64,000 nucleotides of DNA from Puniceicoccaceae bacterium (GCA_040830765.1 JBFOMH010000006.1:1-64000); one strand, 5' to 3'; shown: positions 3 through 43,186, counted from the stretch's first letter. Notes: generated by a model not told the origin, from the sequence alone. Numbers and translations: made by a program.

Positions 3-3000
3 CCAGACCGCCTGGAGCAATTTGAGGACTCCCGCCCCAACAACGATGTTCGGCCCTTTGCTGCCGACCTGGGGATTGCTCCAGGGGTCCACCTGCGCGG
101 GGCCAGCATCAGCACACCCGGCGATGTCGACTACTATCGCTTTGAGCTCATCAAGCCGGAGATCCTTGAGCTCCTCCTGACTGGACATTCCGATTTTGCG
201 CTGACTCTTTATGACGCCAGCGGCCTGGTCGTCGGTGCCAAACCGGCTGGATCGGAACGCAAGCGACTGGTCACGGGCATGCTCCCGGCCGGCGTCTATT
301 ATGTCGGTATCGATGCACCGGACTCGGAAGCCTTTGATCCCTACGAGCTGGATATCAATCCGGGGACCGGCAGCTCCACCCGCGTCTTCTATCTTAACAG
401 TCCTTCGGCGCTTCCGCCAGACGTCCATAGTTTCTACAGCCTTGCGCCGGGTGATGACAGCTACACCGATGCCGGTCTGGATCCCAATCGGCCAGCAGCG
501 ACGATTGAGCGTATCATCTCCCTGCACAATCCATCCCCGGACGACATCATCCTTTTCGATACCGGGACCTACACGGATGCCCTCAGCCTTTCCGGTGCTC
601 CCGCAGGCATGACCCTTGGCGGTGCGCCCAACGAGCGGTTTGAGGATCTGGATCCGGCGGTGGTGTTTGGTTCCTACATGCAGGGCAGCGGCTCCAATCC
701 GGGCGGATCCATCGTTACTACCCAGAACCTGACCCTGGCCCGATTCATATTCGCCGATAGCGACACTGGTCTCAAAGTGACCCAAAGTGACAACTTCAGC
801 GGGGTTGGTTTGGCCTTTGAAAACAATGTCCTCGGACTGGACATTATCGAGTCGGACTTTGCCAGCATTTCGGATAGCTTCTTCAGCGGCCCAGGTGAAC
901 TGAATACCGGCCTGCAGGTCGCCAACTCCACCGGCTTCACTGCGACGGATAACGAAATGGTCCTCCTCGATACTGGAATGGCCCTCGTTAACACCAACGA
1001 TGCTTCTGTCGAGGGACTGGAAACCGGTGAAGTCGAAAATGTCATCCTCGCGGAAGGGGGTAGCGGCCTGTCCATTACAGGACTGGATCTTGAAGGCGCG
1101 GAAGTCACCCAAACCGACCTCGGCATTTCCCTCTATAACGGTAGCGGGCAGACGGCTATTTCTGTCACCCAGCACAGCAATCTTTCCATCAGCAATGCTG
1201 ATATTTACCGCTACGGTCTGGGCATGCGATTGATCGGAGTCAGCGGCGGAACGGTTTCCGGAATCTATACGGAAGAAGTCGATTCGTCCCTGATCGGGTA
1301 TGGACTGAGTGATCTCGGGATCAACAGTTCCGTCCTTGTGGGCTCGGAGGGGAACTATGCCGTCCTCATCGGCCAATCCGGTAATCAGGCCTCGCCGAGC
1401 AACAATGTCAGTATCACCCAATCCATGCTCGGCGTTACTCCACAAGAGGCTGGCCTCCAGGAACCCGTTCAAATAACCGCCCTGATTCAGGACGTCGGCG
1501 GACTGACGATCGATAACGTTACCCTTCACGGACATCTGGAAGTGCTTAACAGTACGAATCTGACCGTAACCAATAATTTTGTCTACAATGGGTCACTGCA
1601 TTTTAAAGAGTCGGGCAACCTCACCCTGACAGATAATCAGATCCATGCTGACTCAGGGGCTGATGTTGCCCGTGTCCGGATGGAGTTGGTATCCGGGGCC
1701 ACTGTCGAGCGAAACTTCATCGAGAAAATCACGCTGGACGAAGGGGAGGAAGTTACCGGCAAACTCCCCGGCATCGGGCTGGAGCTCGTTTCTTCTGACA
1801 CCATAACGATCGAGAACAACATCATTACCCGGATTGAGACAGGATTGCAGGTCAGCGGAACGCTCGAGGCACCTGCTTCCAATACCACCGTTGAACTGAA
1901 CAGCTTTACCACGGGAACAACCGGTATTTTCCTTGTCGATACCTATACCAGCGCCCTGGCATTCCTTAACAATGCGGTGGATGACTACACCGACACCGGC
2001 ATCCATGCTGTTGGAGCGGCCGAGTTTACCTCTAACCGGGTGGAAAATTCCGGAACGGGTATTCGCTACGAGGCCGATGTCCCGAGCCTCTTCAGTAACA
2101 TCGTTGAGAATAATGGCATTGGGATGACCGGCGGGGGGTATCTCGGCAATGATGACCGCTCCGCCAGTCGCTTCAATTTTGTCACCTTGAACGGCACCGG
2201 GATCCTGGCCGAGGGCGATCAGCAGGTCGGATTCAATTATGTCTGGGAAAACGGGATTGGTCTCCAGGTGACCGGCAATAATGTCACCGCCCATCACAAC
2301 ATTGTTCATCGCAATACGGACATCGATGTGCAGGTCACCGGAGCCTCGGGGACAGCCCTGTGGAACAACACCGTTTATTCAACGGGCACCTATGCCGTCC
2401 ACCTGACCGGCGATTCCGCCAACACGGACCTCCGGAACAACATCGTCTGGAATGACGGCGGTGGCACTGTTCTCGGGGTCGATTTCCGCAGCGGGGACGG
2501 CATCACCAGCGATTATAACACCTGGTACGCTTCCGGCGGCGCCGTCCTCTTTGAATGGATCAAGACCTTCGATGATATCCTCGACTGGCAGATTGAGCTC
2601 GGGCTGGACCTGAATTCACTCGGGAATACCCGCATTGACCCGACCCTCGACGAGCCGGCCTTTGTCGACCTGGCGAACAACAATTTCGAGATTGTCGACC
2701 TGACCTCGCGATCCATCAATTCAGGCGATCCCTCCTTTGACTTCTCCAATGAGCCCGGTCCCGACGGCGGGCCGAACGGACTCCGCATCAACCAGGGTGC
2801 CTTCGGGGACACTGCCCTGGCGGCCCTGTCAGCCAGTGCCTACATCCGGGTGTTGGCCCCGAATTACTATTTGGACTATACGCCCGAATTGGCCAAACGC
2901 ATCATTTGGGAATTCTTCAATGCTACGGGCAACGTCTCCCTCGAGCTGATTGAGGACGGCGTGGGAAAGGTGGCTGATATCGCCATTGTGACCGTGGGCA

Positions 3001-6000
3001 ATGTACCCGACCAGGTCTTTGACCAGCCCGCCAGCCACGGATCCTATTTATGGAGCCCTCAGATGAACAGCATCGCCGGCGACAATGACAAGCGCTACTT
3101 CATCCGTGTCACCTCGGCCGATGACAACAACCTGGTCGACGAGAACCGCGAGCCGTTCTCCATTCCGGTCACCTCGAATGCATTCTATGTCAATGATGCC
3201 TCAACCGCAGGCGATAAACTGACTACCGCCATGGGCGATAACCGGTACACCGGCAAGCTTCCCTCGACACCCAAGGCCATCCTGCCCGCCATCCTGCAGA
3301 ATTACTTCCTTGCCGCCAACCAGACGGTCTCTGTCGATACCGGCTACTATCTCCATTTGCGGGATATCCTCATCAGCTCTGCCGATGAACTGGGCAACAA
3401 TGAGGCCTTCACCCTGACCGGGCCGGCCGGCGATCCCAGCCAGGTCTTGTTTGACCGTTCCGACGAGCGCGAAGGATCATCCGGCCTTCTTCTGGATGAC
3501 GCGTCGTTCGTCACCATTCGCAATCTTTCCCTGACGGGTGGCTACCGTGGCATCGAGGCCCGTAACTTCAGTACTTTCCTGGCCCTTGAGAACCTCCAGC
3601 TTGATGGCCATACCGGCATCCAGGTCCATATCCATGATGGCTCCGAGCGGGCCACCCTCGACAACCTCCACCTCCTCAACGGGGGAGGGGACGGCCTCGT
3701 TGTCGATACCCTCCTGCAGTACCTGACCAACAGCACCATTGACAACCATCAAGGAACGGGCGTCTACCTGACGAATACCGGTAATACGCTCGTCCAGGGC
3801 AATATCATCCGCAACAGCCAGGATGATGGATTATACGTCAACAATACCGTTGGCTCGACCGAGACTCTGATAGGGCACGATGACCTGTCGTTGGGCCTTG
3901 GAAATATTCTTGAGGATAACCGCGGGACCCAACTCTATGCGCGGGGCAATACCAAGGTTGTTGGAAATGCGGTTACCCATACGGATGGGGGTGTTTCCGA
4001 TGGAACCGGCATTGGCATTTACCTCCGTGGTGTCGATGGACTGAACAATGTAGTTGGTGGTCACTCCACCGGGATATACGCGACCACCGGTGCGATTATT
4101 GAGGGGAACCGGATCTACAATAATACCCTCCGGGCTATCGGATTGAATGCCAATGCCGCCAGCGTTGAACGGAATGTCATCTATTCCAGCACCAGAGGCA
4201 TTGAGGACCTCACGGGTCAATTCACAGGCGGGGCAGTTATCCGCAACAACCTGATCCTCGACTTTACAGAATTTGCCTACAAGACCACTTTCACGAGCGG
4301 ATATGTTTTTGAGAATAACACCGTCTACAGCGTCCTTGGGGACGGGCTTGTAATCCGCTCCAGCACCGGTGGCACGGTCGTCAACAACATCTTCCACCTC
4401 GAAAACGGGACCGCCATAGACCTTGATTTTTCCAGCCAGGTGGACTTGGCCAGCGACTACAATATCTTCGACATGGCGGGAACAGCCTCGGTCGGCACAT
4501 GGGCGGGCGGTAGCCGGACATCACTGCAGGACTGGCGCAACGCGGCCTTCCTGGACGGGAACAGCCTGGCCATTGATCCGCTCTTCATCGATGTCGACGG
4601 GGCCGACAACAAATTAGGCTACGCCTCCCCGGAAGAGGATGGACGGGACGACAACTTCCACCTTCAGAGCACCGAGGGAAGCATCCGCAACGGGTCCCTT
4701 GCGCCGGTCATCGATGCCGGTTCCGGCCTGCCGGTCGTCCTTCAATCCTTCCGTGTCACAGATGCTTCCCAGTCACCGGGAATCGACCGGGGGGATGCCA
4801 CCTATTCCTTTGACCTTGAGCCCTCCCCGAACGGCAACTTCATCAACATCGGGGCCTTCGGAAACACGGAATTGGCCTCCCTGAGCCCGGTTGCCTATGT
4901 CCTCGTTACATCACCAAACGGCGGGGAGACCTGGCCCATTGAGCAGACCTTTACCATCGAATGGCGCAGCCAGGATTTCAATGGTTCCGTGGATATCCTG
5001 CTCATGCAGGAAGGCAATCCGACTCCCGTGGCCACCATTGCCAGCGCCACCGAGAACGATGGCAGCTATGATTGGGCCCTGACGAACAGCCTCACCCCGG
5101 CGGAGAACTACCGCATCGAGGTAGTGCGCAATGACGACCCGTCCGTCTCTGGACAGAGCCTTAATGTCTTCGCCATCTCCGAACCGATCAGCTTTTACTA
5201 TGTGAATGATGATTTAGTGGAGGCTGGCAACTATACCTCCGCTCCTGGTGACAACGCCAATGACGGACTCAGTCCCGCCACGCCCAAGGCTTCCATTCGG
5301 GCCATCCTCGATACCTACGACCTTGGGGAAGGGGATGTCATTCTTGTTGATGCCGGCACTTACGCCGTCACGACAAATATCTTCATCGAGGCCGAGGATT
5401 CAATGGTCACGATTCGCGGATTCAAGGCTCCCGACAGTTCTGATTTGCTGACAGTCCTTGACCGCGGTAATCCGGCTAGTGGCTCCTATGTTTTCGAGCT
5501 GACAGGAGTCGACGGGCTGACCATCGAGTGGATCACCTTTACTGGTGCCCATCGGGGTATTTATGCCGGGGTTGACCAGGCAACCAACCTGACGGTCAGT
5601 GAGAGTCACTTTATTCACAACGAGAATGCTGGCATTTTCCTCGATGGAGGGAACCGGGGCTTCCTCGCGGAGGGTAATTATTTCAAGGGAAGCGGCATCC
5701 TGAGTAGCGGGCAGGGAAGGCAAACGTCAGGAATCTTCTATGAAGGCTGGGAGGCGGAGATTCGCGGGAATTTGTTTGAACGCAATTACGGGGAGGCCAT
5801 CTATCTTGACCCTGACAATACCAGTGAGCCGATGGAGTTCCTGGTCGAGGGCAATACCATTGATGCGTTCCGGAACGGGATTGTATTGGGCCCTTCCGCA
5901 AGGGATGCGCTCATTCAGGACAACACCGTCTATAACAGCGAAGTTGAAGGCATTGACGCCCGCGGAGCACGGACAATCGTCACCAACAACACGGTATACG

Positions 6001-9000
6001 ACAACAACGTGGGCATTAATGTCATCTTCGGTGCAATGGCCATTGAGAACGTCGAAGTCCGTAACAACACCACTGGCATATCCGTGGGGCGCGACTCCAG
6101 TGCGATTCGTAATGTTGTCTATGACAATACCCAGGGCATCTACGGAAACAATGCGGCCACCTATGAAGACAATGTGGCCTATGGTAACGGGACCGGCTTC
6201 CGCTGGAACTACAATACCCTCGTATTTGGCAACGTCGCCTACAACAATGCCCGTGGGTTCCATGCTGATGGCTACATCGGCAGCAACAGCCAGTGGCGGG
6301 CCAGCATGTACAACAATCTCGCCTACGGAAATACCGAATACGCCATGAAGGCCGAGCGGACCGTTGGCTCGCCACAAATCACCAACAACACCTTTGTTCA
6401 AGCGGGTGTGGATTCCACTGCGGTCATTCTCGATTTCGCCCCGAATATCCGTTTCACCAACAACATTGTCGTCATTGATGCAGGGCAGGCCATGAGCGTA
6501 TTTATCAACAGCCAGCCAGGCTTTACAGCTGATTATAACCTTTACCATCTGACCGGTGGTGCCTCAGCTTTCCTCTGGGGTGAATTGCCGCTTTATACGC
6601 AGCTCGACTGGTTCTACAACGTCGGGGCTGATGCCCATTCCCTCTTCACGGACCCGCTTTTTGTCGACCCGCTGGGCGGCAACTATCACCTTGCACCCGA
6701 TTCTCCGGCCATTGATGCAGGCAATCCTGACACCCATTATCAACTGGAACCGGAGCCGGCGGGTGGCCGCGTCAATCTCGGTGCCTACGGCAATACCAGC
6801 GAGGCAACTGTCAGCCCGGCCCAGACTATACAAATCCTCAATCCGGTGGGCCTCGACAAGTTGCTTGAGGGCCAGCCGTCGACCATGGAGTTCATTACTT
6901 CCGGATTCCTCGATTCCCAGCAGGTTGCCTGGTACAATACAGGCAATACCGGTGTTGGATCCTGGATCCGCTTGCCCGGCGCAACTGGTGTCGCCCAGGA
7001 AAACATTTCCGCCTCCACGGCCATTGACTTGAGCAATGTTGAAAATCCCGCTCCCGAAGAGGTCTACCGGTTGAACTGGCGGACTGCCTCTGGTGTTGGT
7101 CAAAGCATGGACCTGGTGATCGATCTGCTCCCGGGCGACTACCGCCTGCGGATGCACTTTATCGATACAACAACGAGTGCTAACGACATTTTCGACGTCG
7201 AGGTCAATGGACAGCTGGTGCTGGATGACTACTCCGTCTTTGCCGCGGCCGGTGGTCGCTACATCGCGATTGTCGAGGAAGTTGATGTCACGATCGGGGA
7301 AGAGGGTAAGGCTGTCATTACCATTACCTCCGGCAACCGCTATGGCCGCATCGCCGCGGTCGAAGCGCTTCGGCTATATGGCAGCGGCTCGGCTGAGCCC
7401 CCCTTCAACGTTGCCGTGTCCTTTGACAGTGGGGGCAATTTCACCTCCCTGGCCAGCGGGGTGACCGTTGATTCCCGGGGTATCGCCACTGTGGACTGGA
7501 CGCCATTTGCCTCCACCAGCGGCCGGACTGCCCAGCTGATAGTTGCCAGCGTCGACACTCCCTCTGTAACCGGACTCTCACAGCTTTTCCTAGTGGCTAA
7601 TGACGGTAACAGCTACTACGTCAACGATGGCTCCCTTTCCAATGACGTTTACACGACAGCGATCGGTAACAACGCCAACAGTGGCAAGAGCCCCGATTCC
7701 CCGATGGCCAGTCTGGAAGCGCTCCTCACCGTCTACAGTCCACTTCCCGGTGATACCATCTACATCGACTCGGGCACCTACAACTTGACCCGCAACATTG
7801 TCCTCACCGCTGAGGAATCCGGGATCACCATCAAGGGAGCATTTGATCCGGATAACGATGGCGCGGAATCCGTCTTTGACCGCAACAACCAGGCCAACGG
7901 TGCTTATGGCATCGAGATAGCCGGGGCATCCGGAATCACGATCGAGCACCTGACGATAACCGACGCTTACGCTGGTATCTTCGCGGCCAATGAAGCTGCC
8001 CAGGACCTGACCATCTTGAACAGTAAATTCATCTTCAACGAGGAATTCGGGGTATCCATCGGTAGCGGCAACCTCAATTTCCTCGCAGAGGGGAATTTCT
8101 TTGCAGGCGATGGCACCTTCAATGTCAATCCACAGGATATCGGCTTGTTCTATGGCGGCAATATCGGGGTCATCCGGGATAACACCTTCGTGAACAACTA
8201 CCGGGTCGGACTCGATGTCGGAAGTCCCTCTCCCAATGTGGAAATGAATTACCTTGTGGAAGGGAATGAAGCCTCGGGCAGTCTCTATGGCATCCGGGCC
8301 GATGGTTGGGTCAATGACGCCCTTGTCCGCAATAATACCGTTTACGAGAACTCGACTGAAGGCATTGTCGTTAACGGCAACCGCTCGGTTGTGACCGGCA
8401 ATATCATCCACGGCAATAACATTGGGATCAAGGTCAATGCCGCCACGGCTATTGCCAACACGGAGGTCTACAATAACTCCATCGGAATTTACGTCGGTAC
8501 CAGTGGAAAGGCCATCGACAATATTGTCCGCCTCAATGCCGAGGGCATCCGGGTGTCGGCGGGCGCGGGCTACGAACTGGTTAAGGGCAATCTTTCATAC
8601 GATAACACCAACTACGGTTTCCGCTTCAATCACAGCTCCCACATTGTCGGGAATGTCGCCTATGGAAACCGTGGAGGCTTCTATGCCGATGATCTTGGCA
8701 GCAACAGCCAGTTCCGCGGGATCATGCACAACAACCTGTCCTATGGGAACAGCGAGTTTGCCCTGTTGTTGGAAAACACAAGGGGAGTCCCAAAGATCTA
8801 CAACAACACCTTTGTCCAGACTGATCCGGCAGCGACCGCCATCATTCTCGACCGGGCTGCCAATGTCTTCTTCCAGAACAACATTATTGTCGCCCGCGGA
8901 GCCACCGCACTGACGGTTCCGCTCAACAGCCAGGCTGGCTTTGATGCCGATTACAATGTCTGGGATGTTGATACCAGCCTTGCTCCCTTCATCTGGGGCG

Positions 9001-12000
9001 ACTTCACTTTCAGCGACCAGGCTGAGTGGTACTATGGCACCTCCCGGGGCGAGCATTCTGTATTTGCCGATCCGGTATTTGTCGATCCGGACAATGGCGA
9101 TTACCACTTGAAGCCCGGTTCACCGGGCATCGATGCCGGTGATCCGGAGTGGGGGTATGAAATGGAACCAATCCCGGCAGGAGGACGCCTCAATGCTGGA
9201 GCTTATGGCAATACGGCAGAGGCCACAACCAGTCCTGCCCAGACCATTACCATTATTGATCCTACCTTCCTCGCCAAGCCGCAGCAGAACAGCCAGACGG
9301 AGATCCGCTTCCATACTTCCGGATTCCTGAGGGAACAATCGGTCGCCTTCCTTAACGCGGGTGACGATTATATTGGCGGTTGGTTACCACTGGAAGACAG
9401 GAGTACCGGTGGAGCTGCCCTTGAACGGGTTATCGCGGTTGACACCGATGGCGTTATCAACCCCGCACCGCAATCGGTTTACCACCAGTACATGAGAAGT
9501 TCCTTCGGCGCTGGATCCCGGATTGATGTTCCCCTGGAATTGAATCCGGGAGAGTATGTCCTTCGCCTTCACTTTGCCATGGTCAATGGTGCCAATGCCG
9601 GACTCATGGATATTGAAGTGGATGGCGTTGTCGCCGTGGCTGGATACGACATTGATTTCCTTGCCGGTGGGACAGGAATAGCGGTTGTCGAAGAGGTAGC
9701 TGTGACCGTTGATGAGTCGGGTCAGGTTACCGTCTCATTTGTCTCACAGGAGAACTACGCCTACATCAATGCCATCGAAGTGGTCCGAGTGGATGACACC
9801 CTGGCCCCCGAGCCTTTATTCGATATCGATTTATCCTTTGATCGTGGAGAGAACTTCACCTCGCTGGCTACGAGTATAGCTGTCGATTCCCTCGGCATGG
9901 CCAGCGTGCCGTGGATCCCTGAAGCTTCCACGAATGGTCTGGATGCAGTCATCCGGGTCACTGGTCTGTCACAAGTTTTGGTACCCAACCAGACACCAGT
10001 TGAGGTGAGTGGTTTCTCGACCCCCTTCCTCGTGGTCAACGATGGCAACCGTTACTATGTCAACGATAGCTCGACTGAAAACGACGTGTTCACCAAGGCT
10101 GCCGGTAACAACCTCAACAGCGGCAAGTCTCCCTTCAGTCCAATGGCCAGCCTGGAAGCACTCTTCCTCGTCCATACGCCGAAAGCCGGGGATATTGTCT
10201 ACGTCGACACCGGTACTTACCTGATGACCTACAATATCCTGCTGACCGAGGGGAATTCAGGTATCACTATCATCGGGGCGAGCGATCCGGAAAACAGCGC
10301 AGTGGAGACCGTCCTCGACCGGGCCAATCTTAATTCCCCATCATACATTTTTGAGATCGACGGTGCGGATGACCTGACCATTGATTCACTGACCATCACC
10401 AAGGGCTACCGGGGAATCATGGTCTATGAGGGCCAGGGTGAGAACCTCACCATTCGCAATAGCCGCATCATATCCAATGTCGATGCCGGGGTGTATGTCG
10501 CCCTCTACAATCCGGGACTGTTGATTGAGGGTTCCCATTTTGAAGGCGCGCCGGGATTCAATGTTCCCAACCGGCAGGAGCAGGGTCTCGAGACTTTCTC
10601 GACGGACCTCATCATCCGCAACAGCACCTTCATCAATCACTACTTTGGAGCTATCAATTTGAACGACTCCAACTCCAGCACCCCGCAGGCCCTGATCCTC
10701 GACAGTCACTTTGAAGGCGGTGGCAGCGGTAACGGGATCGTCAATATAAACGAAGACTACACAGTTGTCCTCCGCTCTACCTTCGCCAATGGCGACTACA
10801 GTGGGCTTTACCTCCAGGGAGCCAATTCTGTGGTCCGGGATAGTGTGGCCTACGGTAATGACCGGGAGGGCTTCAATATTCGCAATAATGCTACCGCGGA
10901 AAACAATGTAGCCTACAACAATACGCGCGGCTTTTACGGAAACATTGGTGCAAAGCTGCTCAATAATGTTTCTTTCAATAATACCCGTGGCATGTTTACG
11001 AACCAGGGACTGGCGCAGGGAAATCGTGTCTATGGCAATGTTGAGTATGGCATCGGTGGTTACCTTGACGCGCAAATCATTGGCAACCAGGTCTACAGCA
11101 ACGATATTGGTATCCGTGGTTTCCCGTTTAATGCCGGGTTCAATTTGCGTCCGTTCACTGGCCGGATTACCGACAACCTTGTCTATGATAATGGCACCAC
11201 GGGTATCCACTTGGAATATGGGGCCGATTTTGTCCAAATCATCAACAATTCTGTCTACCAGCCGGCAGGTAACGCCCTCTACCTCCGGGAGACGACCTCA
11301 GCGTATATTTTCAACAACATCCTCTGGGTGGATGCCGGATTCGGGATCAATATCGATAGCACCAGTCTTGTTGAGGCGGTGAATATCAATTACAATCTCT
11401 TCAATCTGAGTCCGGATCCGAATGCCCGGATTGGGTTCCTCGATGAAACATTCCTCGATAACCTTGCCGACTGGCAGGGTTCCACCAACAGGGACTCCCA
11501 GAGCATATTCGGTGACCCGATATTCTTCGACATGAGCGGAGCCGACGACGTACAGGCCTACCGGGATGTCGACGGCATTTTCATCGATGGTGGTGAGGAC
11601 GACAATTACCATATTCAGAAGCTCAGCCCGGCAATTGACCGCGGCCATACCTGGTGGACCTCGAAAATCGACCTCGAAGGCGATTCCCGTCTGGATGACC
11701 CGGGAGTGGTCGACATCGGCGATGATCGCTATGTAATTGATTTCTCCGAGGGCAGTCTGTTCGACGGGGATCGCGGAATCGCCCAGGGATGGACGGTCCG
11801 ATGGTCGAAGTACACCTTCGATCTTCCCTTTGAATTTACGTTCTTCGGGGATACGCACACCCAGATAGAAGTTTCCACCTACGGAAATATAGCTTTTCCA
11901 TCAAGTAGGGCCAGTGACACTAATCACAACATTCCGACACTGCTCGACTGGCAGCTTCTCGCTCCCTTCTGGGCGGATGTCACGACAGACGCTGTCAGTG

Positions 12001-13742
12001 GCCGGGATATCTTTATCGATACCTCCGTGCCCGATGAGGTCTACATCCGCTGGGAAGCAAGGGCCATCGGAGGCAGTGAGCTCGTCCAGTTTGCGATTCT
12101 CCTGAAGGCGGATGGCAGCATCCGGCTTGACTATGGACAGGTGGTGGCCGGACTGGATCCACTGGTTGGACTCTCTTACGGCAACGGGATCGATTTTGAA
12201 CTCATTGAGGGCTACAATGGTGCTGAGGACTTGTCCAGTGCCCCATCAGTGACTATCACACGCCAGCCGGGCATTACAGATATCGGCGCCTATGAATTCA
12301 AGGGGAACAGCCTTGATTCTGATGCCCCGGTAACCATCGGTACTGAGCCGCTGGCGATTGAAAACGGAGGAACTTATTCCGGTTTCCTTGAGAACATCGT
12401 GGTCGTTCTCAGCGAGGCACCGGACTCCATCGATGTCAGCAGTCCGGCGACCTATGAACTGATCCTCGATTCCGACGGGGACGAGCTCTTCACCGATGCC
12501 GATACCTTCTACGACTTGATTCCCATTTATGATCCACAGACCAATTCGGTTAACCTGATCATTGAGGAGGGCCCATTGCCAGACGGCGATTACCGGTTCC
12601 GTATTCAGGCCGGTAACCTGCGTGATGTCTCCGGCAATCCGCTCGATGGTGACGGCGACGGCGAGGCCGGGGGCGATTACCTGCGGCAGTTTATTGTCCG
12701 TCAGCCGGTCCTGCCGGAGTTCACCAGTGCCGATATAGCCGAGACAATAATCAATGAACCATTCAACTTCCAGGTTACCGCAACCGAATCGCCCTTCCTT
12801 TTCGCTGCCACCGGGCTTCCTCAAGGTATGTCCATCGATGCCGGGACCGGCCTCATCTCAGGAACACCGACCGTCTCGGGCGAATTCAGTGTCATTCTCA
12901 GTGCCACCAACGGTGACGGTGTGGCCGAGATGACACTTGAACTCAATGTCCTGCCGGTTCCGCAAATTCTGGATACTGTAATCAACAACGGCGATTCCCA
13001 GCGTTCCATGGTCACCCGGATTGAAATCAAGGTCGACAGCGACATCAGCGGCAGCCTTCTTGCGGAGGACATCAGCTTCCTCGACCTCGTGACTGATACA
13101 TACCTCGCGACTGAGTCCATCCAGGTCAACTGGAGCTTCCTGACCAGGACCATTACCATTACCTTCCCGGGCCTTGCGGGTGGTAGCCTTCCAGATGGGG
13201 ATTATGTCCTCGAAATCCTCTCGGGGACCCTCTCAGCCAATGACATCCTGCTCGATGGTGACGGGGATGGTGTCCAGGGAGGCAAGTTCACCTTCAGTTT
13301 CCATCGTCTCTTCGGGGACCTCTCCGGAAACCGGACCGTCGATGTATCCGACAGCTTCCAGTTCCGGGCCAGCTACAACAGTGAAATCGGGCAAGTCGCC
13401 TATCAGGCCGGCTTCGACTATAACAGCGATGGCCTCATCGATGCCTCGGATGGAATCCTTTTCACCCAGAATCTCCGTACCAGTCTTGATTCCGTTGTGG
13501 ATGCATCTGCTGAATCCGATGAGACTCCCCTCATCAACAACGAGCCTGCCTCCGTCAGTAGTGGCAGCAGTGGCCGCTATTGGAGCTCCTATGGCCTTTT
13601 CCGCACCGGCGACCGACTCTTCAGTTCCATGACAACCAGCCCCGCATACGGCATCCTCCACGCTTCCATTTATTGGCACGGCACAGACGAACCCTTCTGG
13701 CACCAACTGCTGGACGATGAGGAGGAGAATTGGATTTTCTGA
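3..13742 (+). CDS. Giant surface protein, 5'-partial: PPC-like domain, five right-handed beta-helix (PbH1/NosD-like) modules, two malectin-like domains, NIDO-like, Ig-like/He_PIG domains, C-terminal dockerin-like domain
   Basis: Frame 3 is open from base 3 (PDRLEQFEDSRPNNDVRPFAADLGIAPGVHLRGAS...) into the 4487-aa ORF, so ATG 279 is internal. Repeated (Y/F)Y(V/L)N...G.N module starts at about 383, 3180, 5195, 7615, 10050. Malectin-like segments at about 6930-7375 and 9345-9790. Paired Ca-loop motifs GDLSGNRTVDVSD (13314) and DYNSDGLIDASD (13416). Confidence 0.9.
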   Translation, partial: PDRLEQFEDSRPNNDVRPFAADLGIAPGVHLRGASISTPGDVDYYRFELIKPEILELLLTGHSDFALTLYDASGLVVGAKPAGSERKRLVTGMLPAGVYYVGIDAPDSEAFDPYELDINPGTGSSTRVFYLNSPSALPPDVHSFYSLAPGDDSYTDAGLDPNRPAATIERIISLHNPSPDDIILFDTGTYTDALSLSGAPAGMTLGGAPNERFEDLDPAVVFGSYMQGSGSNPGGSIVTTQNLTLARFIFADSDTGLKVTQSDNFSGVGLAFENNVLGLDIIESDFASISDSFFSGPGELNTGLQVANSTGFTATDNEMVLLDTGMALVNTNDASVEGLETGEVENVILAEGGSGLSITGLDLEGAEVTQTDLGISLYNGSGQTAISVTQHSNLSISNADIYRYGLGMRLIGVSGGTVSGIYTEEVDSSLIGYGLSDLGINSSVLVGSEGNYAVLIGQSGNQASPSNNVSITQSMLGVTPQEAGLQEPVQITALIQDVGGLTIDNVTLHGHLEVLNSTNLTVTNNFVYNGSLHFKESGNLTLTDNQIHADSGADVARVRMELVSGATVERNFIEKITLDEGEEVTGKLPGIGLELVSSDTITIENNIITRIETGLQVSGTLEAPASNTTVELNSFTTGTTGIFLVDTYTSALAFLNNAVDDYTDTGIHAVGAAEFTSNRVENSGTGIRYEADVPSLFSNIVENNGIGMTGGGYLGNDDRSASRFNFVTLNGTGILAEGDQQVGFNYVWENGIGLQVTGNNVTAHHNIVHRNTDIDVQVTGASGTALWNNTVYSTGTYAVHLTGDSANTDLRNNIVWNDGGGTVLGVDFRSGDGITSDYNTWYASGGAVLFEWIKTFDDILDWQIELGLDLNSLGNTRIDPTLDEPAFVDLANNNFEIVDLTSRSINSGDPSFDFSNEPGPDGGPNGLRINQGAFGDTALAALSASAYIRVLAPNYYLDYTPELAKRIIWEFFNATGNVSLELIEDGVGKVADIAIVTVGNVPDQVFDQPASHGSYLWSPQMNSIAGDNDKRYFIRVTSADDNNLVDENREPFSIPVTSNAFYVNDASTAGDKLTTAMGDNRYTGKLPSTPKAILPAILQNYFLAANQTVSVDTGYYLHLRDILISSADELGNNEAFTLTGPAGDPSQVLFDRSDEREGSSGLLLDDASFVTIRNLSLTGGYRGIEARNFSTFLALENLQLDGHTGIQVHIHDGSERATLDNLHLLNGGGDGLVVDTLLQYLTNSTIDNHQGTGVYLTNTGNTLVQGNIIRNSQDDGLYVNNTVGSTETLIGHDDLSLGLGNILEDNRGTQLYARGNTKVVGNAVTHTDGGVSDGTGIGIYLRGVDGLNNVVGGHSTGIYATTGAIIEGNRIYNNTLRAIGLNANAASVERNVIYSSTRGIEDLTGQFTGGAVIRNNLILDFTEFAYKTTFTSGYVFENNTVYSVLGDGLVIRSSTGGTVVNNIFHLENGTAIDLDFSSQVDLASDYNIFDMAGTASVGTWAGGSRTSLQDWRNAAFLDGNSLAIDPLFIDVDGADNKLGYASPEEDGRDDNFHLQSTEGSIRNGSLAPVIDAGSGLPVVLQSFRVTDASQSPGIDRGDATYSFDLEPSPNGNFINIGAFGNTELASLSPVAYVLVTSPNGGETWPIEQTFTIEWRSQDFNGSVDILLMQEGNPTPVATIASATENDGSYDWALTNSLTPAENYRIEVVRNDDPSVSGQSLNVFAISEPISFYYVNDDLVEAGNYTSAPGDNANDGLSPATPKASIRAILDTYDLGEGDVILVDAGTYAVTTNIFIEAEDSMVTIRGFKAPDSSDLLTVLDRGNPASGSYVFELTGVDGLTIEWITFTGAHRGIYAGVDQATNLTVSESHFIHNENAGIFLDGGNRGFLAEGNYFKGSGILSSGQGRQTSGIFYEGWEAEIRGNLFERNYGEAIYLDPDNTSEPMEFLVEGNTIDAFRNGIVLGPSARDALIQDNTVYNSEVEGIDARGARTIVTNNTVYDNNVGINVIFGAMAIENVEVRNNTTGISVGRDSSAIRNVVYDNTQGIYGNNAATYEDNVAYGNGTGFRWNYNTLVFGNVAYNNARGFHADGYIGSNSQWRASMYNNLAYGNTEYAMKAERTVGSPQITNNTFVQAGVDSTAVILDFAPNIRFTNNIVVIDAGQAMSVFINSQPGFTADYNLYHLTGGASAFLWGELPLYTQLDWFYNVGADAHSLFTDPLFVDPLGGNYHLAPDSPAIDAGNPDTHYQLEPEPAGGRVNLGAYGNTSEATVSPAQTIQILNPVGLDKLLEGQPSTMEFITSGFLDSQQVAWYNTGNTGVGSWIRLPGATGVAQENISASTAIDLSNVENPAPEEVYRLNWRTASGVGQSMDLVIDLLPGDYRLRMHFIDTTTSANDIFDVEVNGQLVLDDYSVFAAAGGRYIAIVEEVDVTIGEEGKAVITITSGNRYGRIAAVEALRLYGSGSAEPPFNVAVSFDSGGNFTSLASGVTVDSRGIATVDWTPFASTSGRTAQLIVASVDTPSVTGLSQLFLVANDGNSYYVNDGSLSNDVYTTAIGNNANSGKSPDSPMASLEALLTVYSPLPGDTIYIDSGTYNLTRNIVLTAEESGITIKGAFDPDNDGAESVFDRNNQANGAYGIEIAGASGITIEHLTITDAYAGIFAANEAAQDLTILNSKFIFNEEFGVSIGSGNLNFLAEGNFFAGDGTFNVNPQDIGLFYGGNIGVIRDNTFVNNYRVGLDVGSPSPNVEMNYLVEGNEASGSLYGIRADGWVNDALVRNNTVYENSTEGIVVNGNRSVVTGNIIHGNNIGIKVNAATAIANTEVYNNSIGIYVGTSGKAIDNIVRLNAEGIRVSAGAGYELVKGNLSYDNTNYGFRFNHSSHIVGNVAYGNRGGFYADDLGSNSQFRGIMHNNLSYGNSEFALLLENTRGVPKIYNNTFVQTDPAATAIILDRAANVFFQNNIIVARGATALTVPLNSQAGFDADYNVWDVDTSLAPFIWGDFTFSDQAEWYYGTSRGEHSVFADPVFVDPDNGDYHLKPGSPGIDAGDPEWGYEMEPIPAGGRLNAGAYGNTAEATTSPAQTITIIDPTFLAKPQQNSQTEIRFHTSGFLREQSVAFLNAGDDYIGGWLPLEDRSTGGAALERVIAVDTDGVINPAPQSVYHQYMRSSFGAGSRIDVPLELNPGEYVLRLHFAMVNGANAGLMDIEVDGVVAVAGYDIDFLAGGTGIAVVEEVAVTVDESGQVTVSFVSQENYAYINAIEVVRVDDTLAPEPLFDIDLSFDRGENFTSLATSIAVDSLGMASVPWIPEASTNGLDAVIRVTGLSQVLVPNQTPVEVSGFSTPFLVVNDGNRYYVNDSSTENDVFTKAAGNNLNSGKSPFSPMASLEALFLVHTPKAGDIVYVDTGTYLMTYNILLTEGNSGITIIGASDPENSAVETVLDRANLNSPSYIFEIDGADDLTIDSLTITKGYRGIMVYEGQGENLTIRNSRIISNVDAGVYVALYNPGLLIEGSHFEGAPGFNVPNRQEQGLETFSTDLIIRNSTFINHYFGAINLNDSNSSTPQALILDSHFEGGGSGNGIVNINEDYTVVLRSTFANGDYSGLYLQGANSVVRDSVAYGNDREGFNIRNNATAENNVAYNNTRGFYGNIGAKLLNNVSFNNTRGMFTNQGLAQGNRVYGNVEYGIGGYLDAQIIGNQVYSNDIGIRGFPFNAGFNLRPFTGRITDNLVYDNGTTGIHLEYGADFVQIINNSVYQPAGNALYLRETTSAYIFNNILWVDAGFGINIDSTSLVEAVNINYNLFNLSPDPNARIGFLDETFLDNLADWQGSTNRDSQSIFGDPIFFDMSGADDVQAYRDVDGIFIDGGEDDNYHIQKLSPAIDRGHTWWTSKIDLEGDSRLDDPGVVDIGDDRYVIDFSEGSLFDGDRGIAQGWTVRWSKYTFDLPFEFTFFGDTHTQIEVSTYGNIAFPSSRASDTNHNIPTLLDWQLLAPFWADVTTDAVSGRDIFIDTSVPDEVYIRWEARAIGGSELVQFAILLKADGSIRLDYGQVVAGLDPLVGLSYGNGIDFELIEGYNGAEDLSSAPSVTITRQPGITDIGAYEFKGNSLDSDAPVTIGTEPLAIENGGTYSGFLENIVVVLSEAPDSIDVSSPATYELILDSDGDELFTDADTFYDLIPIYDPQTNSVNLIIEEGPLPDGDYRFRIQAGNLRDVSGNPLDGDGDGEAGGDYLRQFIVRQPVLPEFTSADIAETIINEPFNFQVTATESPFLFAATGLPQGMSIDAGTGLISGTPTVSGEFSVILSATNGDGVAEMTLELNVLPVPQILDTVINNGDSQRSMVTRIEIKVDSDISGSLLAEDISFLDLVTDTYLATESIQVNWSFLTRTITITFPGLAGGSLPDGDYVLEILSGTLSANDILLDGDGDGVQGGKFTFSFHRLFGDLSGNRTVDVSDSFQFRASYNSEIGQVAYQAGFDYNSDGLIDASDGILFTQNLRTSLDSVVDASAESDETPLINNEPASVSSGSSGRYWSSYGLFRTGDRLFSSMTTSPAYGILHASIYWHGTDEPFWHQLLDDEEENWIF

Positions 13743-13771
13743 TCATGCTTGGCATCCGCACCAGTCGAATT

Positions 13772-14497
13772 ATGCGCAATAGCCTGATGTTCATCATGCT
13801 GATCGTCAGCGCATTTTCGCTCCATGCGGTCACCCTGGAATTTGACCAGGCGACCTACAGCGCGCGCCCGGGTGATAGTTTTGACATAACCGTCCGCCTC
13901 AGTGAGCCCGTGCCCAACGGCCTCGCAGGCTATGCGCTCAAGCTGGGATTCTCCAGTGGCCTATTGGCCATCGACCAGATCCAGGTTGTTCCGCAACTCG
14001 ACTTTGACCTTTTCGAACCTGGCGCTGCCCGCAACGCCGGGGCTGATTTTGCCTCCGTAGCTGGGTTTACCGAGTTTGGCCAGCCTGCCTACAACGGGAC
14101 GGACTTTGTGACCTTCTCGGTGACACTGGCCAAGACAGCCCAGGAAGGGGAAGTCAGCCTCAATCTCGGTCCATTGCTGGCCAATGCGGTTAACTTTGTC
14201 GATGGACTGGGGAATCCGCTGGACGATACGCTCGTTCTCGGAACAGCTACCCTGGATATCCTGCCACCCTGGCCGGAGGAATTTTTGGACGACCTGCATG
14301 TCAGCATCGAAGGAAACCGGACCGTCCTCCGTTTCAGCGGTATTCCAGGGCGGATTTACAGGATTCTCTATTCCACGACCTTGCAGGACCGTTCATGGAT
14401 TCTCCTGCAGGATATCGAGGCTCCCGAAAGTGGGCTTGTCGAGGTGACGGATACCCTCGGGTCCGAAACCCGCTTCTACAACGTCACTTCCCCATAG
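13772..14497 (+). CDS. Secreted cohesin-like domain protein with a C-terminal Y.I..ST.L..W...FY domain
   Basis: Signal peptide MRNSLMFIMLIVSAFSLHA|VTLEF. Beta-sandwich pattern 'ARPGDSFDITVRL...GLAGYALKLGF...FVTFSVTL...NFVDGLGNPL' resembles cohesins. Start could instead be ATG 13745. Confidence 0.7.
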   Translation: MRNSLMFIMLIVSAFSLHAVTLEFDQATYSARPGDSFDITVRLSEPVPNGLAGYALKLGFSSGLLAIDQIQVVPQLDFDLFEPGAARNAGADFASVAGFTEFGQPAYNGTDFVTFSVTLAKTAQEGEVSLNLGPLLANAVNFVDGLGNPLDDTLVLGTATLDILPPWPEEFLDDLHVSIEGNRTVLRFSGIPGRIYRILYSTTLQDRSWILLQDIEAPESGLVEVTDTLGSETRFYNVTSP

Positions 14498-14521: not shown

Positions 14522-14550
14522 TTGACACGCATCCAGCTTGCAGGGAAAAT
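14522..14550 (+). promoter_or_regulatory. Putative sigma70-type promoter of the ECF sigma gene
   Basis: TTGACA (14522-27), 17-nt spacer, GAAAAT (14545-50), then ATG at 14561. Confidence 0.45.
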
Positions 14551-14560
14551 CACCCCATCG

Positions 14561-15175
14561 ATGGGGAATGTGCTGGGCAAACCTGAACCGGACTACTCGG
14601 ATGCTGTGGTCAAGGCCGCCTGCAACGGCAGCAAGGAGGCATTCGGGGAATTGTTCCGGGCCCTCTATGGCCGCGTCCACCGGACTGTCTGGGCCATGCT
14701 TGGGGACGAGTCGGACGCCCATGATGTCGCCCAGGAAGCCTGGATCAAGGCATGGGAGAACAAGGAAAAGTACAACTTCCAGTCGCTCTATTCAACCTGG
14801 GTGCACCGCATCGCGGTCAATTGTGCCCTCGATGCCTTGCGGAGGCGCAAACGACTTTGGACCAAGCTCAAACGGTTTGGGATAAGGGACGAAGGACAAA
14901 AGACGAAAGATGGTACGGAATTAGCCGTCGCAAAGGAGTCATTTGACCTCAGTCCTTCGTCTTTAGTCCAAAACAAGGAACTTGGCCAGACCATCGAGGT
15001 CGCTGTCGCTGAGTTGCCGGAGGACCAGCGGACGGTGCTTGTCCTCAGGGAATATGAAGGGTACAGTTACGCGGAAATCGCAAAGTCCCTTGGTATCCAG
15101 CCAGGAACCGTCATGTCCCGCCTGCATCTCGCCAGAAAGAAACTTCAATCACGATTATCCAAGGAACTGTCATGA
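14561..15175 (+). CDS. ECF-type RNA polymerase sigma-70 factor
   Basis: Region 2 'DAHDVAQEAWIKAW...FQSLYSTWVHRIAVNCALDALRR' and region 4 'LPEDQRTVLVLREYEGYSYAEIAKSLGIQPGTVMSRLHLARKKL'. The ORF-track TTG at 14522 coincides with the -35 hexamer, so ATG 14561 is preferred. Confidence 0.93.
   Translation: MGNVLGKPEPDYSDAVVKAACNGSKEAFGELFRALYGRVHRTVWAMLGDESDAHDVAQEAWIKAWENKEKYNFQSLYSTWVHRIAVNCALDALRRRKRLWTKLKRFGIRDEGQKTKDGTELAVAKESFDLSPSSLVQNKELGQTIEVAVAELPEDQRTVLVLREYEGYSYAEIAKSLGIQPGTVMSRLHLARKKLQSRLSKELS
14884..14972. repeat. Heptamer tandem repeats (consensus RAAGGAC) in inverted arrangement inside the sigma factor gene
   Basis: aagggac-gaaggac-aaaagac-gaaagat (14884-14911) and the reverse-oriented gtccttc-gtcttta-gtccaaa (14952-14972). 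Confidence 0.65.
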
Positions 15176-15630
15176 AACTGCCCATACGCAATCTGATGAA
15201 TGTGCTAATCCTTGCCGGGATCTGCGGCCTGCTGGCTGCACCCGCTACCTCGGACGCCGCCAGCGAGCGGGTACAGGTTATCCTGGTGGAAGCCAGTAAT
15301 GGCGAGGGCGGGGTGGACAGCTCACTCCGGGCCTATGCCGGTACCTTGCAGCGACTCTTCAAGTTCAAGAGCTACAAGCAGCTCAGCCGCAACAGTCTGC
15401 GGCTGGATGTGCCCGGGGAGGGGAGTGTCAGCCTTGCCGGTGGGCAGAAACTGACCCTCAGGGCCTCTGATGGAAGCAAACGGGGTCTCATGGCCGAACT
15501 GACCTGGGCCCGGGGTTCCAAAAAACTCCTCCATACCCGGATCCAGTTGCGCTCCGGCAGCCCCGCTGTCCTAGGCGGACCCAGTACCGGTAGAGGCGGA
15601 ACCTACCTGCTCATCCTGGTGATGGATTAA
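15172..15630 (+). CDS. Exported hypothetical protein coupled to the ECF sigma gene
   Basis: ATGA overlap with the sigma stop codon; N-terminal signal peptide (VLILAGICGLLAAPATSDA). Confidence 0.8.
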   Translation: MKLPIRNLMNVLILAGICGLLAAPATSDAASERVQVILVEASNGEGGVDSSLRAYAGTLQRLFKFKSYKQLSRNSLRLDVPGEGSVSLAGGQKLTLRASDGSKRGLMAELTWARGSKKLLHTRIQLRSGSPAVLGGPSTGRGGTYLLILVMD

Positions 15631-15771
15631 AGGAGTACAGGCCTTTGGCCTGTACATGATCTACAGGCGGGACGCCTGTAGTCCATTCCGGGGACGCCCT
15701 TGTTAAAGGAGTAAAGGCCTCTGGCCTGTGCAAAAACTACAGGCAGGACGCCTGTAGTCCAATCCTGGACG
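15627..15771. repeat. Two tandem 76-bp units, each with two REP-like hairpins (BIME-like), between convergent genes
   Basis: Units start 'ttaaaggagta' at 15627 and 15703. Perfect hairpins GTACAGGCC-ttt-GGCCTGTAC (15635-55) and CTACAGGCG-gga-CGCCTGTAG (15661-81), with imperfect copies in unit 2. Confidence 0.85.
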
Positions 15772-33629: not shown

Positions 33630-36600
33630 TCACTGGCCTTGGAGTGAGATCCTGTAATAGGCGTTACTTCCACCGCGGGGCCGGACGATGCTCTGCCGGT
33701 TGCCATCGCCCGCGGAACTGTGGACGGGATTCCAGTTAAGCAGATCGGTGCTTTCCTCAATGAGGTAGGCCTGGCCGGTTGTGGTGTAGTAATCAAGGGT
33801 TGCGTTGGGAGTGGATCCGCCGGCGGGGGTGAGTGCCTCGATCCGGACTGCGCTTGGAGTCCAGATTCCGGGTGATCCCGCAAAGGCCGGGCTGGCAATC
33901 CAGTCGCTGGCGTTCCCGCCTGCCGGCCATGCCCCGACGGCCTCCAGCGAGGAGCCCGCCCCGTCGGCCAACTGCGGCCAACGTCCGGAATCATGATAGG
34001 CAAACACGGAAATTGGATCCAGGTTGGCGTCGAGGAGGCGGATCCGTTCGCCGCTGTTGGAAAGGTATCCGTCATAGGGGCCGGAAACGGGGGACAGGAC
34101 GGACGGATAGGCCGCCTTGAAGAGGTCGGGATCCTTGGCCACGATAAGCTTTCCGAGGGGAGGCAGGGTTGTTGGCTCAGCGAGCGTCCAGTCGATACCG
34201 TCCGTGAACCGAATGCCGGTCACGCTGAGCGGCGCACTCGATACATTGGATATTTCAATGAATTCAAGGTCTCGTGCTGCTTCTCCCCCGAATGGATGAT
34301 ACATGATTTCCGTGATACGGAGGTATGCCTGCTGGGCGCTGGATGCCGTTGCGGCAAAACTAAAGGAGTCGACAAGGTTTCCGGTCCCGGTCACCAGATC
34401 GATGCTGCCGCCCGTATTGGGAAGATAGCCGCTGTAGGGTCCCTGCACAAAGGCGGATTCGCCCCGTTTGGGACTGGTCGACCGGTTTCGGAAGGCGACA
34501 ACATCGGGGGAGAGGTAAAGGCTGTCTCCGGGTGTCAGGACAACGCCCTCCTGGAAGGTCATGCTGACTGCTCCAGTGACCGACCAGCCGGACAAATCGA
34601 CAGCCCGATTCCCGAAATTCCGGATCCGGATGTATTCCTCAAGTGGATTGCCGGAAGCCGGAGTTGCCCTGACCTCGGTAATCCTTATGTCTATCGCCTC
34701 GGTGGGAACCGGCAGGGGAATGATTCCACCATTCTCCTCCGCGTGAGTTCCATAGAGGTAGTTGCGGCGGGAGGCGAGAAAGTTGTCCCGGACTTCGCCC
34801 AAGTCAATTTCATACAGCCCCCACTTGGCGAAGTCCAAGTCGGCATCGAACTTGTAGGCCGCATAAAGGCTGTTCATGCGATTCTCAAAGTATCCGTCAG
34901 CCAGATTAGTCCCGGGAGCTTGTAGCCAGGTATCCATTACAGTCCGCAGACGCCGGAGATACATGGCCTTGGTTCGCGAGTCCATCAAGAGGGCCCCGAA
35001 AAGGCGGTTGTATTCGCCACCTGAATACTGTGGATGGTCCGCGTCACCATAGAGCGGGTGGGAACGGCGATCGTTGTTCGCAGGGGTCCAGTAGGTCTCG
35101 GCAAAGAAAGTCAGGTTAAGGTCCCATGGAAAGACCGACCATTCCCGGGTTCCATTGATATCATGGTAGAGATAGTAGTTATGCCACTGGTTGTCCGTGT
35201 GCTTGAGGATGACCCCGGTCGCGATGTAGTTGATGACCTGTGGAACATTGATGGTGTCAAAGAGGACTGACTGGAGGGTGGAACCGGAGGACTTGAGACT
35301 TTGCACAAGCGCCACCAGATCGTCGGAGGGCTCATCCTTGTTGGTCCGTTTCTCGATTCCATCGGTAGTCACGAGGTACCCGTCCGGTTTGCCAACCGCC
35401 TTGTAAAGGGAGCCATTCTCATCCAGTCCATTGCGCTCAAGGAAGCGGTCATCAACCTGTTCGAGGAAGGTCGCGACGCTGAAGAACTGTCCATTCTGGC
35501 GGATGTGCATGTTGAAGGCGAGCGAGGCGGGAATCTGATTGGTGCGGAAAGTCTCATAGGCGAGGACCTCCCTCATGAACGAGTCGTCGAAGCGTGCGGT
35601 GCCCACCGGGAAATAGGTGGACTGGAGATTGAATTCCTCGACACGCCGCAAGTCCGGGGAGAATTTGAACTTGGGGTCCCCGTCAAAATCAAACTTGAGG
35701 GCTTGTTTCGGGGAATCGTCTGTTGATTGGCCCCTGCGGCGGACGGTCACATTGTCGTAGAATTCCCCGTTGAAGTAGAGGCAGGTGGCGGTTTCGTCCC
35801 GGTTGTTTTCAAAACCCCGAATGATATTCCACTTCGGGTCTTCCACAAACCAGTGGAGCACCGGCAGGAAGCTCTGGATACTGGTATCCTTATAGACCAG
35901 TCCATGCTGGCGGGCAAGCTGGGATATGGCGGGGGATTGTCCTGTGTCACCATTCCCGTCCACTGCCGAAATGATGTAACGGAGCATCTCGCCCGGGTTG
36001 GCAATATTTCCTGGAATGAAGGCGGTATAAATCCCGTCATTGGCCAGCGCGTCCCCAGCAGTCCCGTTATCCACCATGGGAATGGCAGTGGGCTGGCCAT
36101 ACATGATGGTGTACCGGAGCTGGGCCGAAGCGACCACCGTGGTCGTGCTGGCAATGGCGGCCGTCACCTTGACCGGTTCCCCAGGCAGGGGTTCATGGGG
36201 GGCATGAAGGACTTCAGTAATCTCCGGTCCGAGAGATCCCGTAAGCGCCCCGTTGGCAGCGCCCGGAGTCGGCTGGAAAAAGTATCCCCATGCGGAGCCG
36301 GGCCCCAGGCCATAGCTGACATCTGCCAATTGCTCCGGGAACTGGGGCGAGTAGGCGTGATGGATCGTAACCCCGTCAGGCTCCACCAGGGCCAGGTATT
36401 CTCCCCCGGAGCTGAGTTTGAAATTCGTATGCAATTGGGAACCCGCAACGGCCCGGTCCTTTCCTGAGGCAAAGACGACCAAATATCCCTTGGCAGGGAT
36501 AGTGACCTGCGGGAGCCGCCAACGGGTCAGGTTCAGTGGATCATCCGTCAGGTACCAGCCATCCAGGTTGACCGGGACAAACTGATCATTTGACAATTCC

Positions 36601-42898: not shown

Positions 42899-43186
42899 TC
42901 TAAAGCAATATTGTCCGTTTTTGGAGGCGGCAGGGTGTCAGTCAGCGAACCTCAAAATTCTTCTTTGCCGAAGGTCATAAGGCAATGTCTATACGCACCT
43001 CCAAAGGTCCTAATCCCTCGTAATTGTAGGATCAAAACTTCTGCCTACGATGCCTTGGGTATTGTAGCATTTTCAATCTTCGGGTTCTGGCCGGAAATTG
43101 CGCTTGCCAGCTTTGCCGGACGAGCGATATTTTCATATGAAATAAATCTTTATTTCAACAAGAATTCATTATCTCTGATCTTCCCC

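Follow-up and report, generated by a model that had tools for sequence, protein, structure and literature searches.

A candidate cohesin-dockerin pair formed by a giant beta-helix protein and a small RFYR-tailed protein in a member of the Opitutales

Results

The stretch of DNA analyzed here (the window; 64,000 nucleotides, GCA_040830765.1 JBFOMH010000006.1:1-64000, G000:C6:1-64000 in our numbering) comes from a Puniceicoccaceae bacterium, a member of the Opitutales, Verrucomicrobiota (genome G000; 3.99 Mb, 96.9% complete). At the beginning of the window, a gene for a giant beta-helix protein (giant A) with a dockerin near its C-terminus is followed on the same strand by a gene for a small protein, which is composed of a signal peptide, a single domain predicted to have the cohesin fold, and a C-terminal beta-sandwich (the RFYR tail) (Table 1). 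The pair recurs at a second giant of the same genome (giant B) and in other genomes. On balance, we think it probable that the dockerin of the giant is held on the cell surface by the one-cohesin protein via the RFYR tail.

The Pfam domains found in giant A were Beta_helix, NosD, Malectin, Kre9_KNH, He_PIG, and a weak Dockerin_1; the protein is likely an adhesin or a glycan-binding or hydrolytic surface protein. It aligned to residues 2380-6934 of its paralogue, giant B, with 44.6% identity over 4612 columns, and, as judged from the start of this alignment, about 2,400 residues are probably missing. The N-terminus of giant A lies beyond the contig start, and a search of the assembly did not recover it; giant B has a LEPR-XLL leader, as do most of the several giant proteins of the genome where the N-terminus was assembled. 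Two Ca-loop motifs start at 13314 (G-D) and 13416 (D-Y-N-S-D-G), exactly where the initial annotation had placed two Ca-loop/helix repeats; the acidic or Asn ligands occupy loop positions 1, 3, 5, 9, and 12, and the helices in the model are residues 130-139 and 163-172. The same annotation had the giant end in the dockerin, which is right as to its position near the end but leaves out the low-complexity residues (about 80-85) that follow it.

The last 180 folded residues of giant A were modelled as one rigid unit of an immunoglobulin (Ig)-like domain and the dockerin (predicted local distance difference test (pLDDT), 94; predicted template modelling score (pTM), 0.87), hereafter called the module. 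The best matches of the module profile in the PDB were dockerins, X-Doc of CipA among them, and PF00404 (Dockerin_1) was matched by 18 of 22 homologous modules at E<=0.1, the dockerin of giant B scoring 28.9 bits (gathering cut-off, 22.9). In a Foldseek search with the model, X-Doc chains ranked first, yet with a root-mean-square deviation (rmsd) of 13-15 Å, and the Ig part was closest to the SbsC and CopC types (best Z, 7.8). As modelled, the Ig-dockerin end would be an analogue of X-Doc and at most a candidate member of the X-Doc dyads.

The small gene, initially placed 29 nt downstream of giant A, more likely starts at the ATG at 13745, 2 nt past the stop codon; this start is favoured because the resulting 250 amino acids (aa) equal the length of four of nine close homologues and because the same TGA-nn-ATG junction occurs in the related genome G007. 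A contig from the run of another study (X3) spans 13296-14136 with an identical sequence, so that the junction of the two genes is no assembly artefact. In the model of the small protein (pLDDT, 86), a signal helix is followed by a sandwich of 146 residues and a tail with six strands. The sandwich, for which a cohesin-like structure had been proposed, was modelled as a cohesin: in a structure search of 48,161 PDB representatives, the top 20 matches were all cohesin entries (Z, 11.2-15.8; next Z, 10.1), the best of them with an rmsd of 2.5 Å over 138 aligned residues (Z, 15.8), and Foldseek agreed on the fold (6kgf_A; TMt 0.79, E 1.7e-8). The identity to solved cohesins was 10-19%, and PF00963 (Cohesin) was matched at E<=0.1 by 8 of 39 members of the family. 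A signal peptide followed by a single cohesin is the layout of the anchoring scaffoldins of the SdbA/ScaE type, and to this extent the proposal of a one-cohesin surface anchor stood; this copy had no Pfam/NCBIfam match or motif for an S-layer homology (SLH) or LPXTG anchor and no PEP-CTERM, lipobox Cys, or transmembrane (TM) tail, and the hold on the surface is putative.

When the cohesin, the dockerin, and two Ca ions were modelled together, the interface score ipSAE was 0.73, versus 0.02 for the best control, in line with the docking that had been suggested (the mark for ipSAE was reached by 116 of 157 solved complexes and by 2 of 215 mismatched pairs). The runs agreed in at least 98% of the contacts, and the pLDDT of the partner was at least 86. 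The predicted interface centres on dockerin residues 129-137 (end of the first loop and helix 1; 13341-13367) and includes loop positions 10 and 11 and the near-invariant Arg17, which we take to be the canonical recognition positions of dockerins. Across 22 pairs, the distances among the dockerins correlated with those among the cohesins (Spearman, 0.36; Ig versus cohesin, 0.19), which is weak support because the kin are not independent (the Mantel test is confounded by kinship). Co-evolution is not claimed: the conservation of the interface within the near family (0.56 vs 0.48 for the rest) was only in slight excess.

Giant B extends beyond the window and ends in a module like that of giant A; its stop codon overlaps the ATG of its own partner gene (C6:68685-69455), whose product is 41% identical to the small protein. 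The suggestion of the initial annotation that the small protein may also serve the second giant was therefore dropped, one anchor for both giants being unneeded. Near the N-terminus of giant B, an LCAT/PGAP1-like alpha/beta-hydrolase was observed (window 48244-49623; LCAT, 26.3 bits; cut-off, 21), and thus giant B could act as a lipase or acyltransferase in tethered form. In total, the genome was found to contain three dockerin proteins and three proteins with a single cohesin. The third candidate pair (L002:3011-16234, G000:C27, minus strand) consists of a protein of 1488 aa that carries an N-terminal dockerin as well as Big_5 and, four genes later, a 382-aa cohesin and Big_7 protein with an RFY-like tail; the genes in between encode an fn3 protein, a 132-aa protein, a 908-aa protein, and a kelch protein, and both the dockerin and the cohesin score above the Pfam cut-offs. 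The other giants of the genome (on C5, C7, C8, C19, and C33; 2,600-18,600 aa, several cut by contig ends) are without dockerin, and several of them end in low-complexity acidic tails resembling the tail after the dockerin of giant A.

Among 101 related genomes, the full small protein was found only in G000 and G007, and the G007 copy lies behind the orthologous giant. A search of 401 genomes of the order with the module gave matches in 8 genomes, and all five giant ends with the full module (two in G000 and one each in G007, G095, and G149) precede a gene for a signal peptide, a beta-domain, and an RFY tail. Behind a second dockerin type in G095, G149, and G726:C36, the partner belongs to a second family (signal peptide, domain of about 160 aa, and RFY tail; Table 1); besides this second-family pair, G726 has first-type pairs. 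The G095 giant (12,522 aa) contains three tandem modules, and in G149:C3 (L025:2-17000), two breaks divide the beta-helix giant among three frames, and OEP+HlyD and GAF+HlyD genes lie after the pair. A further search of the order (A6) matched 60 of 401 genomes, mostly in RFYR tails, the full cohesin being found only in G000, G007, and G137. Weak module matches in G050, G068, G198, and G199 were partial; the terminal dockerin of G199 precedes a PEP-CTERM protein. Three of 401 genomes of the phylum matched, G405:C76 having the same gene order with a first-type cohesin that ends in PEP-CTERM. On another contig of this genome (G405:C72, L038:5498-7258, minus strand), beside a run of N, the module continues in frame into a linker, another LEPR-type motif, and further giant protein, which represents either fused giants or a misassembly. 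Since few genomes of the order and the phylum matched, the pair system is patchy and not core. Searches with the small-protein alignment gave 459 pattern matches in metagenome contigs and 59 in genome contigs, none of which was confirmed.

For the wider comparison, the best 80 of 161 confirmed genome loci and 78 metagenome loci with the module were collected, and 155 loci were used after removal of 3 duplicates; the named loci were mostly from Planctomycetota and Verrucomicrobiota. Eligible loci (109/155) had a closed open reading frame (ORF), the module within 300 residues of the end, and at least 800 nt downstream, and a partner was called when a cohesin-family domain started within 600 nt downstream on the same strand by an iterated profile (best reversed decoy, E 0.47 or worse). 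A downstream cohesin-family gene was found in 38 of the 109 (22/57 and 16/52). In the 58 loci with long flanks, 23 had the cohesin in the first 600-nt bin on the same strand, and 1 had it in the other nine bins together. Among the loci without a detected downstream partner, at least three have a cohesin gene upstream of the giant, beyond the flank. When the module was non-terminal or the ORF unclosed, an upstream cohesin gene was present in 11 of 21 loci, nine of these genes ending in RFYR; in these 11 loci, the cargo ORF carries the module close to its N-terminus, and in several of them a stretch resembling a signal peptide immediately precedes the module. The adjacency that the initial annotation had expected is thus conserved, in near relatives as well as in these loci, and the three tests set beforehand for refuting the initial interpretation, as far as they could be run in silico, all came out in favour of that interpretation.

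Whole genomes were checked as well. In each of G724 (Haloferula chungangensis, a cultured carrier of the RFYR type) and G728, one module and one cohesin are adjacent; in G727, each of the four cohesin matches, one of which is partial, sits immediately upstream of a module gene, so that four of the seven module genes have such a neighbour; and in G726, three of four full cohesins follow module genes, the fourth preceding a LEPR-type gene. By eye, P0036, P0042, P0063, and P0067 each combine a cohesin-like domain with a dockerin-like repeat, resembling monovalent adaptors.

The RFYR tail had no match in Pfam/NCBIfam at E<=0.1, including the Por_Secre_tail/TIGR04183-type models of the type IX secretion system (T9SS), and its Atlas neighbours were clusters without a name that occur most often in Verrucomicrobiota (score 0.92, no more than a lead). 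The RFYR profile gave 10 matches in G000, seven of them within 15 residues of the C-terminus, and about 50 further tail-only matches in G726. The seven include the CotH protein of the window, whose sharing of this domain had been noted from the sequence and was recovered with the profile (E 0.0027; pairwise BLASTP of the two tails gave nothing). Of the 38 downstream partners, 33 end in a PEP-type tail as judged by pattern, and PF07589 is matched by 23, with 12 above the cut-off; 83 cohesin relatives were divided by a crude pattern into 46 PEP-type, 26 RFY-type, and 11 other tails (P0017 at least was misfiled). Because the same cohesin family carries RFYR or PEP-CTERM in the same C-terminal slot, the tail is a candidate sorting or anchoring module. 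RFYR is not used for lack of a PEP-CTERM system, since G000 has three exosortase genes and about 20 PEP-CTERM proteins. A tail of a distinct type, rich in Trp/Tyr, was observed at the C-terminus of a pectinesterase and Ig protein (window 42911-46417), and similar tails close other G000 proteins.

Table 1. Features of the cohesin-dockerin pair and related genes (window coordinates unless a contig or locus is given)
Feature	Position	Strand	Basis or remark
Giant A, beta-helix/malectin-like repeat protein	3..13742	+	at least 4579 aa; 5' end cut by contig start; start-to-stop ORF 279..13742
He_PIG Ig domain (Pfam-matched part), before terminal module	12807..12929	+	Pfam, E 2.9e-8
Ig-like "QRS" domain packed rigidly on dockerin; X-module-like position, CopC/SbsC-like fold	12957..13307	+	model, structure search
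Dockerin, two Ca-loop/helix repeats	13314..13481	+	motifs, Pfam, PDB profile match, model
Ser/acidic low-complexity tail after dockerin, about 80-85 aa	13497..13742	+	sequence
Small protein: probable start ATG (13745) and Sec-type signal peptide, no lipobox	13745..13828	+	judged by eye, helix in model
Small protein: single predicted cohesin-fold domain, divergent family below Pfam cut-off	13829..14266	+	model, fold searches
Small protein: RFYR C-terminal beta-sandwich, about 75 aa	14267..14497	+	model; no Pfam/NCBIfam match
Related RFYR-type tail on LTD/CotH protein (ORF 33630-36770)	33630..33860	-	profile, E 0.0027
Giant B: LEPR-XLL leader, LCAT/PGAP1-like hydrolase, beta-helices	47824..64000, on to C6:68688 beyond the window	+	NF012209, 32.4 bits (cut-off 17)
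Second partner family genes	L024:212-1039, L025:10057-10905, L234:2314-3132	-, +, +	downstream of second dockerin type

In the neighbourhood of the pair, a gene for an extracytoplasmic function (ECF) sigma factor (Sigma70_r2/r4) starts 24 nt after the small gene and is followed by a 152-aa gene without Pfam match, possibly for an anti-sigma factor (window 14522-15630); the sigma factor gene is not conserved beside the pair in G007. A promoter and terminator scan gave results at chance level, and a TTGACA site at 14522 may start the sigma factor gene. The RNA-run contigs listed cover parts of giant A and neighbouring genes and hardly the small gene, and none of those listed bridges the junction; joints and loose ends of such contigs at about 15630-15730 (window 15629-15730), between converging genes, are probably due to a hairpin or repeat. 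The Rfam scan of the window found a tRNA only.

Discussion

If the giant is held on the surface by the one-cohesin protein, the close spacing of the two genes (a gap of 2 nt here, ATGA overlaps in relatives) would allow coupled translation and thereby about one socket per giant. The small protein would exit by Sec, and the giant by a separate route for LEPR-XLL proteins. The RFYR tail would take the role ascribed to PEP-CTERM in relatives; the small protein would be retained via this tail and would capture the dockerin at the surface, each giant having its own socket.

Several results weigh against this reading. Profile searches with Pfam, as proposed initially, did find both domains here, but both fell below the cut-offs: 17.3 bits for the dockerin of giant A (cut-off, 22.9) and 13.5-15.2 bits for the cohesin (cut-off, 24.1). 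Only 1 of the 38 downstream partners matches PF00963, and their identity as cohesins therefore rests on the iterated profile. No downstream partner was detected in 71 of the 109 eligible loci, three of the seven module genes of G727 have no cohesin neighbour, and in Stieleria magnilauensis (G725), the module was matched 25 times and the cohesin profile not once (4 Pfam cohesins are present); conversely, the PEP-CTERM cohesin of G137 has no module within 12 kb. The partners in G095 and G149 are of a different family from the small protein, with an unconfirmed link to cohesins: the second family, G726:C36 included, gave an HHalign probability of 2.5% and no Pfam cohesin match. As for the complex, its score indicates likeness and not binding, since cohesin-dockerin is a textbook type of pair that resembles solved complexes; binding of the small protein's cohesin to the dockerin of giant A is a prediction from models, and the surface location is putative. 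Finally, two of the ten RFYR matches in G000 are internal, and since such internal copies exist and neither a TM helix nor a known motif was found, the tail may be a plain Ig/FN3 spacer or a binding domain.

This last point leads to the alternative that survives best, although we consider it unlikely: the small protein would be a free adaptor or cap whose cohesin binds the dockerin, RFYR being no anchor and the second sandwich linking the matrix or another protein. The small protein indeed has no TM segment, lipobox, or known sorting motif, its tail is a folded beta-sandwich that is also internal in some proteins, and doubles of cohesin and FN3 exist (2w1n aligns with model residues 28-250 at an rmsd of 10.9 Å). 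However, the tail sits in the slot that PEP-CTERM occupies in the same family, and it closes unrelated secreted proteins, as seen from the C-terminal position of seven of the ten G000 matches and from the tail-only matches in G726. These observations speak against the free adaptor.

Quite improbable in our view is retention from the inside, by which a periplasmic cohesin would hold the giant by its C-terminal dockerin as the remainder passes outward through a TolC-type channel, on the model of LapA-type adhesins, which are held by a retention domain. A Sec signal peptide alone delivers to the periplasm only, and the G149 pair precedes OEP/TolC and HlyD genes, resembling the locus related to type I secretion (T1SS) in the available part of PMC4452313; however, the module near the N-terminus of the cargo in 11 loci is unfit for a C-terminal plug, and there are no exporter genes beside either of the two G000 pairs with giants A and B. 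Least of all do we expect that the two proteins do not bind each other, that is, that co-inherited genes encode a cohesin fold with another target and a dockerin serving as a Ca2+-stabilised end cap: the many module genes without detectable partner (71/109; G725), the scores below the Pfam cut-offs, and a complex score that may recall solved pairs would fit this, whereas adjacency across three gene orders and two tail types and an interface at canonical dockerin positions with a near-invariant Arg speak against it.

Beyond the proposed surface anchoring of the two giants, a broader reading is possible, and we put it forward tentatively: a plug-and-socket display across the Planctomycetes-Verrucomicrobia-Chlamydiae (PVC) group, in which divergent, Pfam-invisible cohesins would be partners of the dockerins of giants, RFYR would be a Verrucomicrobiota-type sorting signal interchangeable with PEP-CTERM, and parallel socket types within one genome would be private anchors for different giants. 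With this pair, there is a candidate for the partner and for the mechanism by which a cell with two membranes would keep hold of proteins some 7,000 residues long, and it gives a functional clue to the common, uncatalogued RFYR tail of Verrucomicrobiota, which alternates with PEP-CTERM on one cohesin family. Protein engineering could also profit from an orthogonal cohesin-dockerin pair, and a labelled dockerin, if the display reading is true, would be a ready probe of the final location of proteins with RFYR and PEP-CTERM tails.

Among known systems, the pair is like SdbA with CipA X-DocII (2b59, 5g5d; C. thermocellum), OlpA/OlpC (3ul4, 4dh2), and ScaE (2zf9; R. flavefaciens) in having one cohesin and a C-terminal envelope module; as in those X-module systems, the end of the partner is a dockerin with an Ig-type domain packed against it, and their entries were among the top structural matches. 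The anchors of SdbA and OlpA are presumably of the SLH type. Unlike SdbA, OlpA, and ScaE, the present pair occurs in a diderm host, ends in RFYR or PEP-CTERM instead of SLH or LPXTG, and has as cargo one beta-helix giant, not a scaffoldin; unlike that of the X-Doc dyads, the Ig domain is CopC/SbsC-like, and the Ig-dockerin dyad superposes on X-Doc dyads only with an rmsd of 13-15 Å. The SLH and sortase anchor types of such proteins are described in the available part of PMC11557425. The hallmark of the cellulosome, a multi-cohesin scaffoldin with many dockerin glycoside hydrolases, was not found in G000.

Non-cellulosomal systems have been proposed as well. Like the pair described here, the "planctosome" of Nemodlikiaceae (PMC6461901, in its accessible part) is a cohesin/dockerin system of a PVC lineage based on genome data alone; unlike it, a 2,210-aa LTD-anchored protein and an adaptor bear the cohesins there and peptidases bear the dockerins, whereas here a 250-aa one-cohesin protein with another tail is matched gene by gene to one giant. 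The complex of Ca. Stygibacter (PMC8542988, as far as accessible) is similar in its diderm host and in a cohesin protein whose conserved C-terminal domain was proposed for surface attachment, and differs in its multi-cohesin scaffoldin, several dockerin enzymes, and phylum; scaffoldin-like proteins of anaerobic methanotrophic archaea (ANME) are another such proposal (PMC9012536, accessible part). As in PEP-CTERM/exosortase sorting (PMC1569441; PF07589, PF09721), PEP-CTERM forms the C-terminus of most relatives of the small protein, while this copy and its near subfamily end in RFYR; the accessible part of PMC1569441 does not contain the word cohesin. Dockerin_1 is enriched in huge proteins of Planctomycetota according to PMC11573180, in whose accessible part no partner is named ("cohesin" occurs 0 times), and dockerin-type giants of Omnitrophota are described in 10.1101/2023.11.21.568195, the accessible part of which has no such partner gene. 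The divergent cohesin family is a candidate partner for part of the huge Planctomycetota dockerin proteins. Literature searches for PEP-CTERM with cohesin and for PEP-CTERM with Planctomyc and dockerin gave no paper, although subscription papers and supplements may mention such pairs, and those on Verrucomicrobi with RFYR and on T9SS-like tails gave nothing about this system by title or abstract. The contribution of this locus is the single-cohesin form with an RFYR tail, the duplication with one socket per giant, and a model of the complex that passes its mark.

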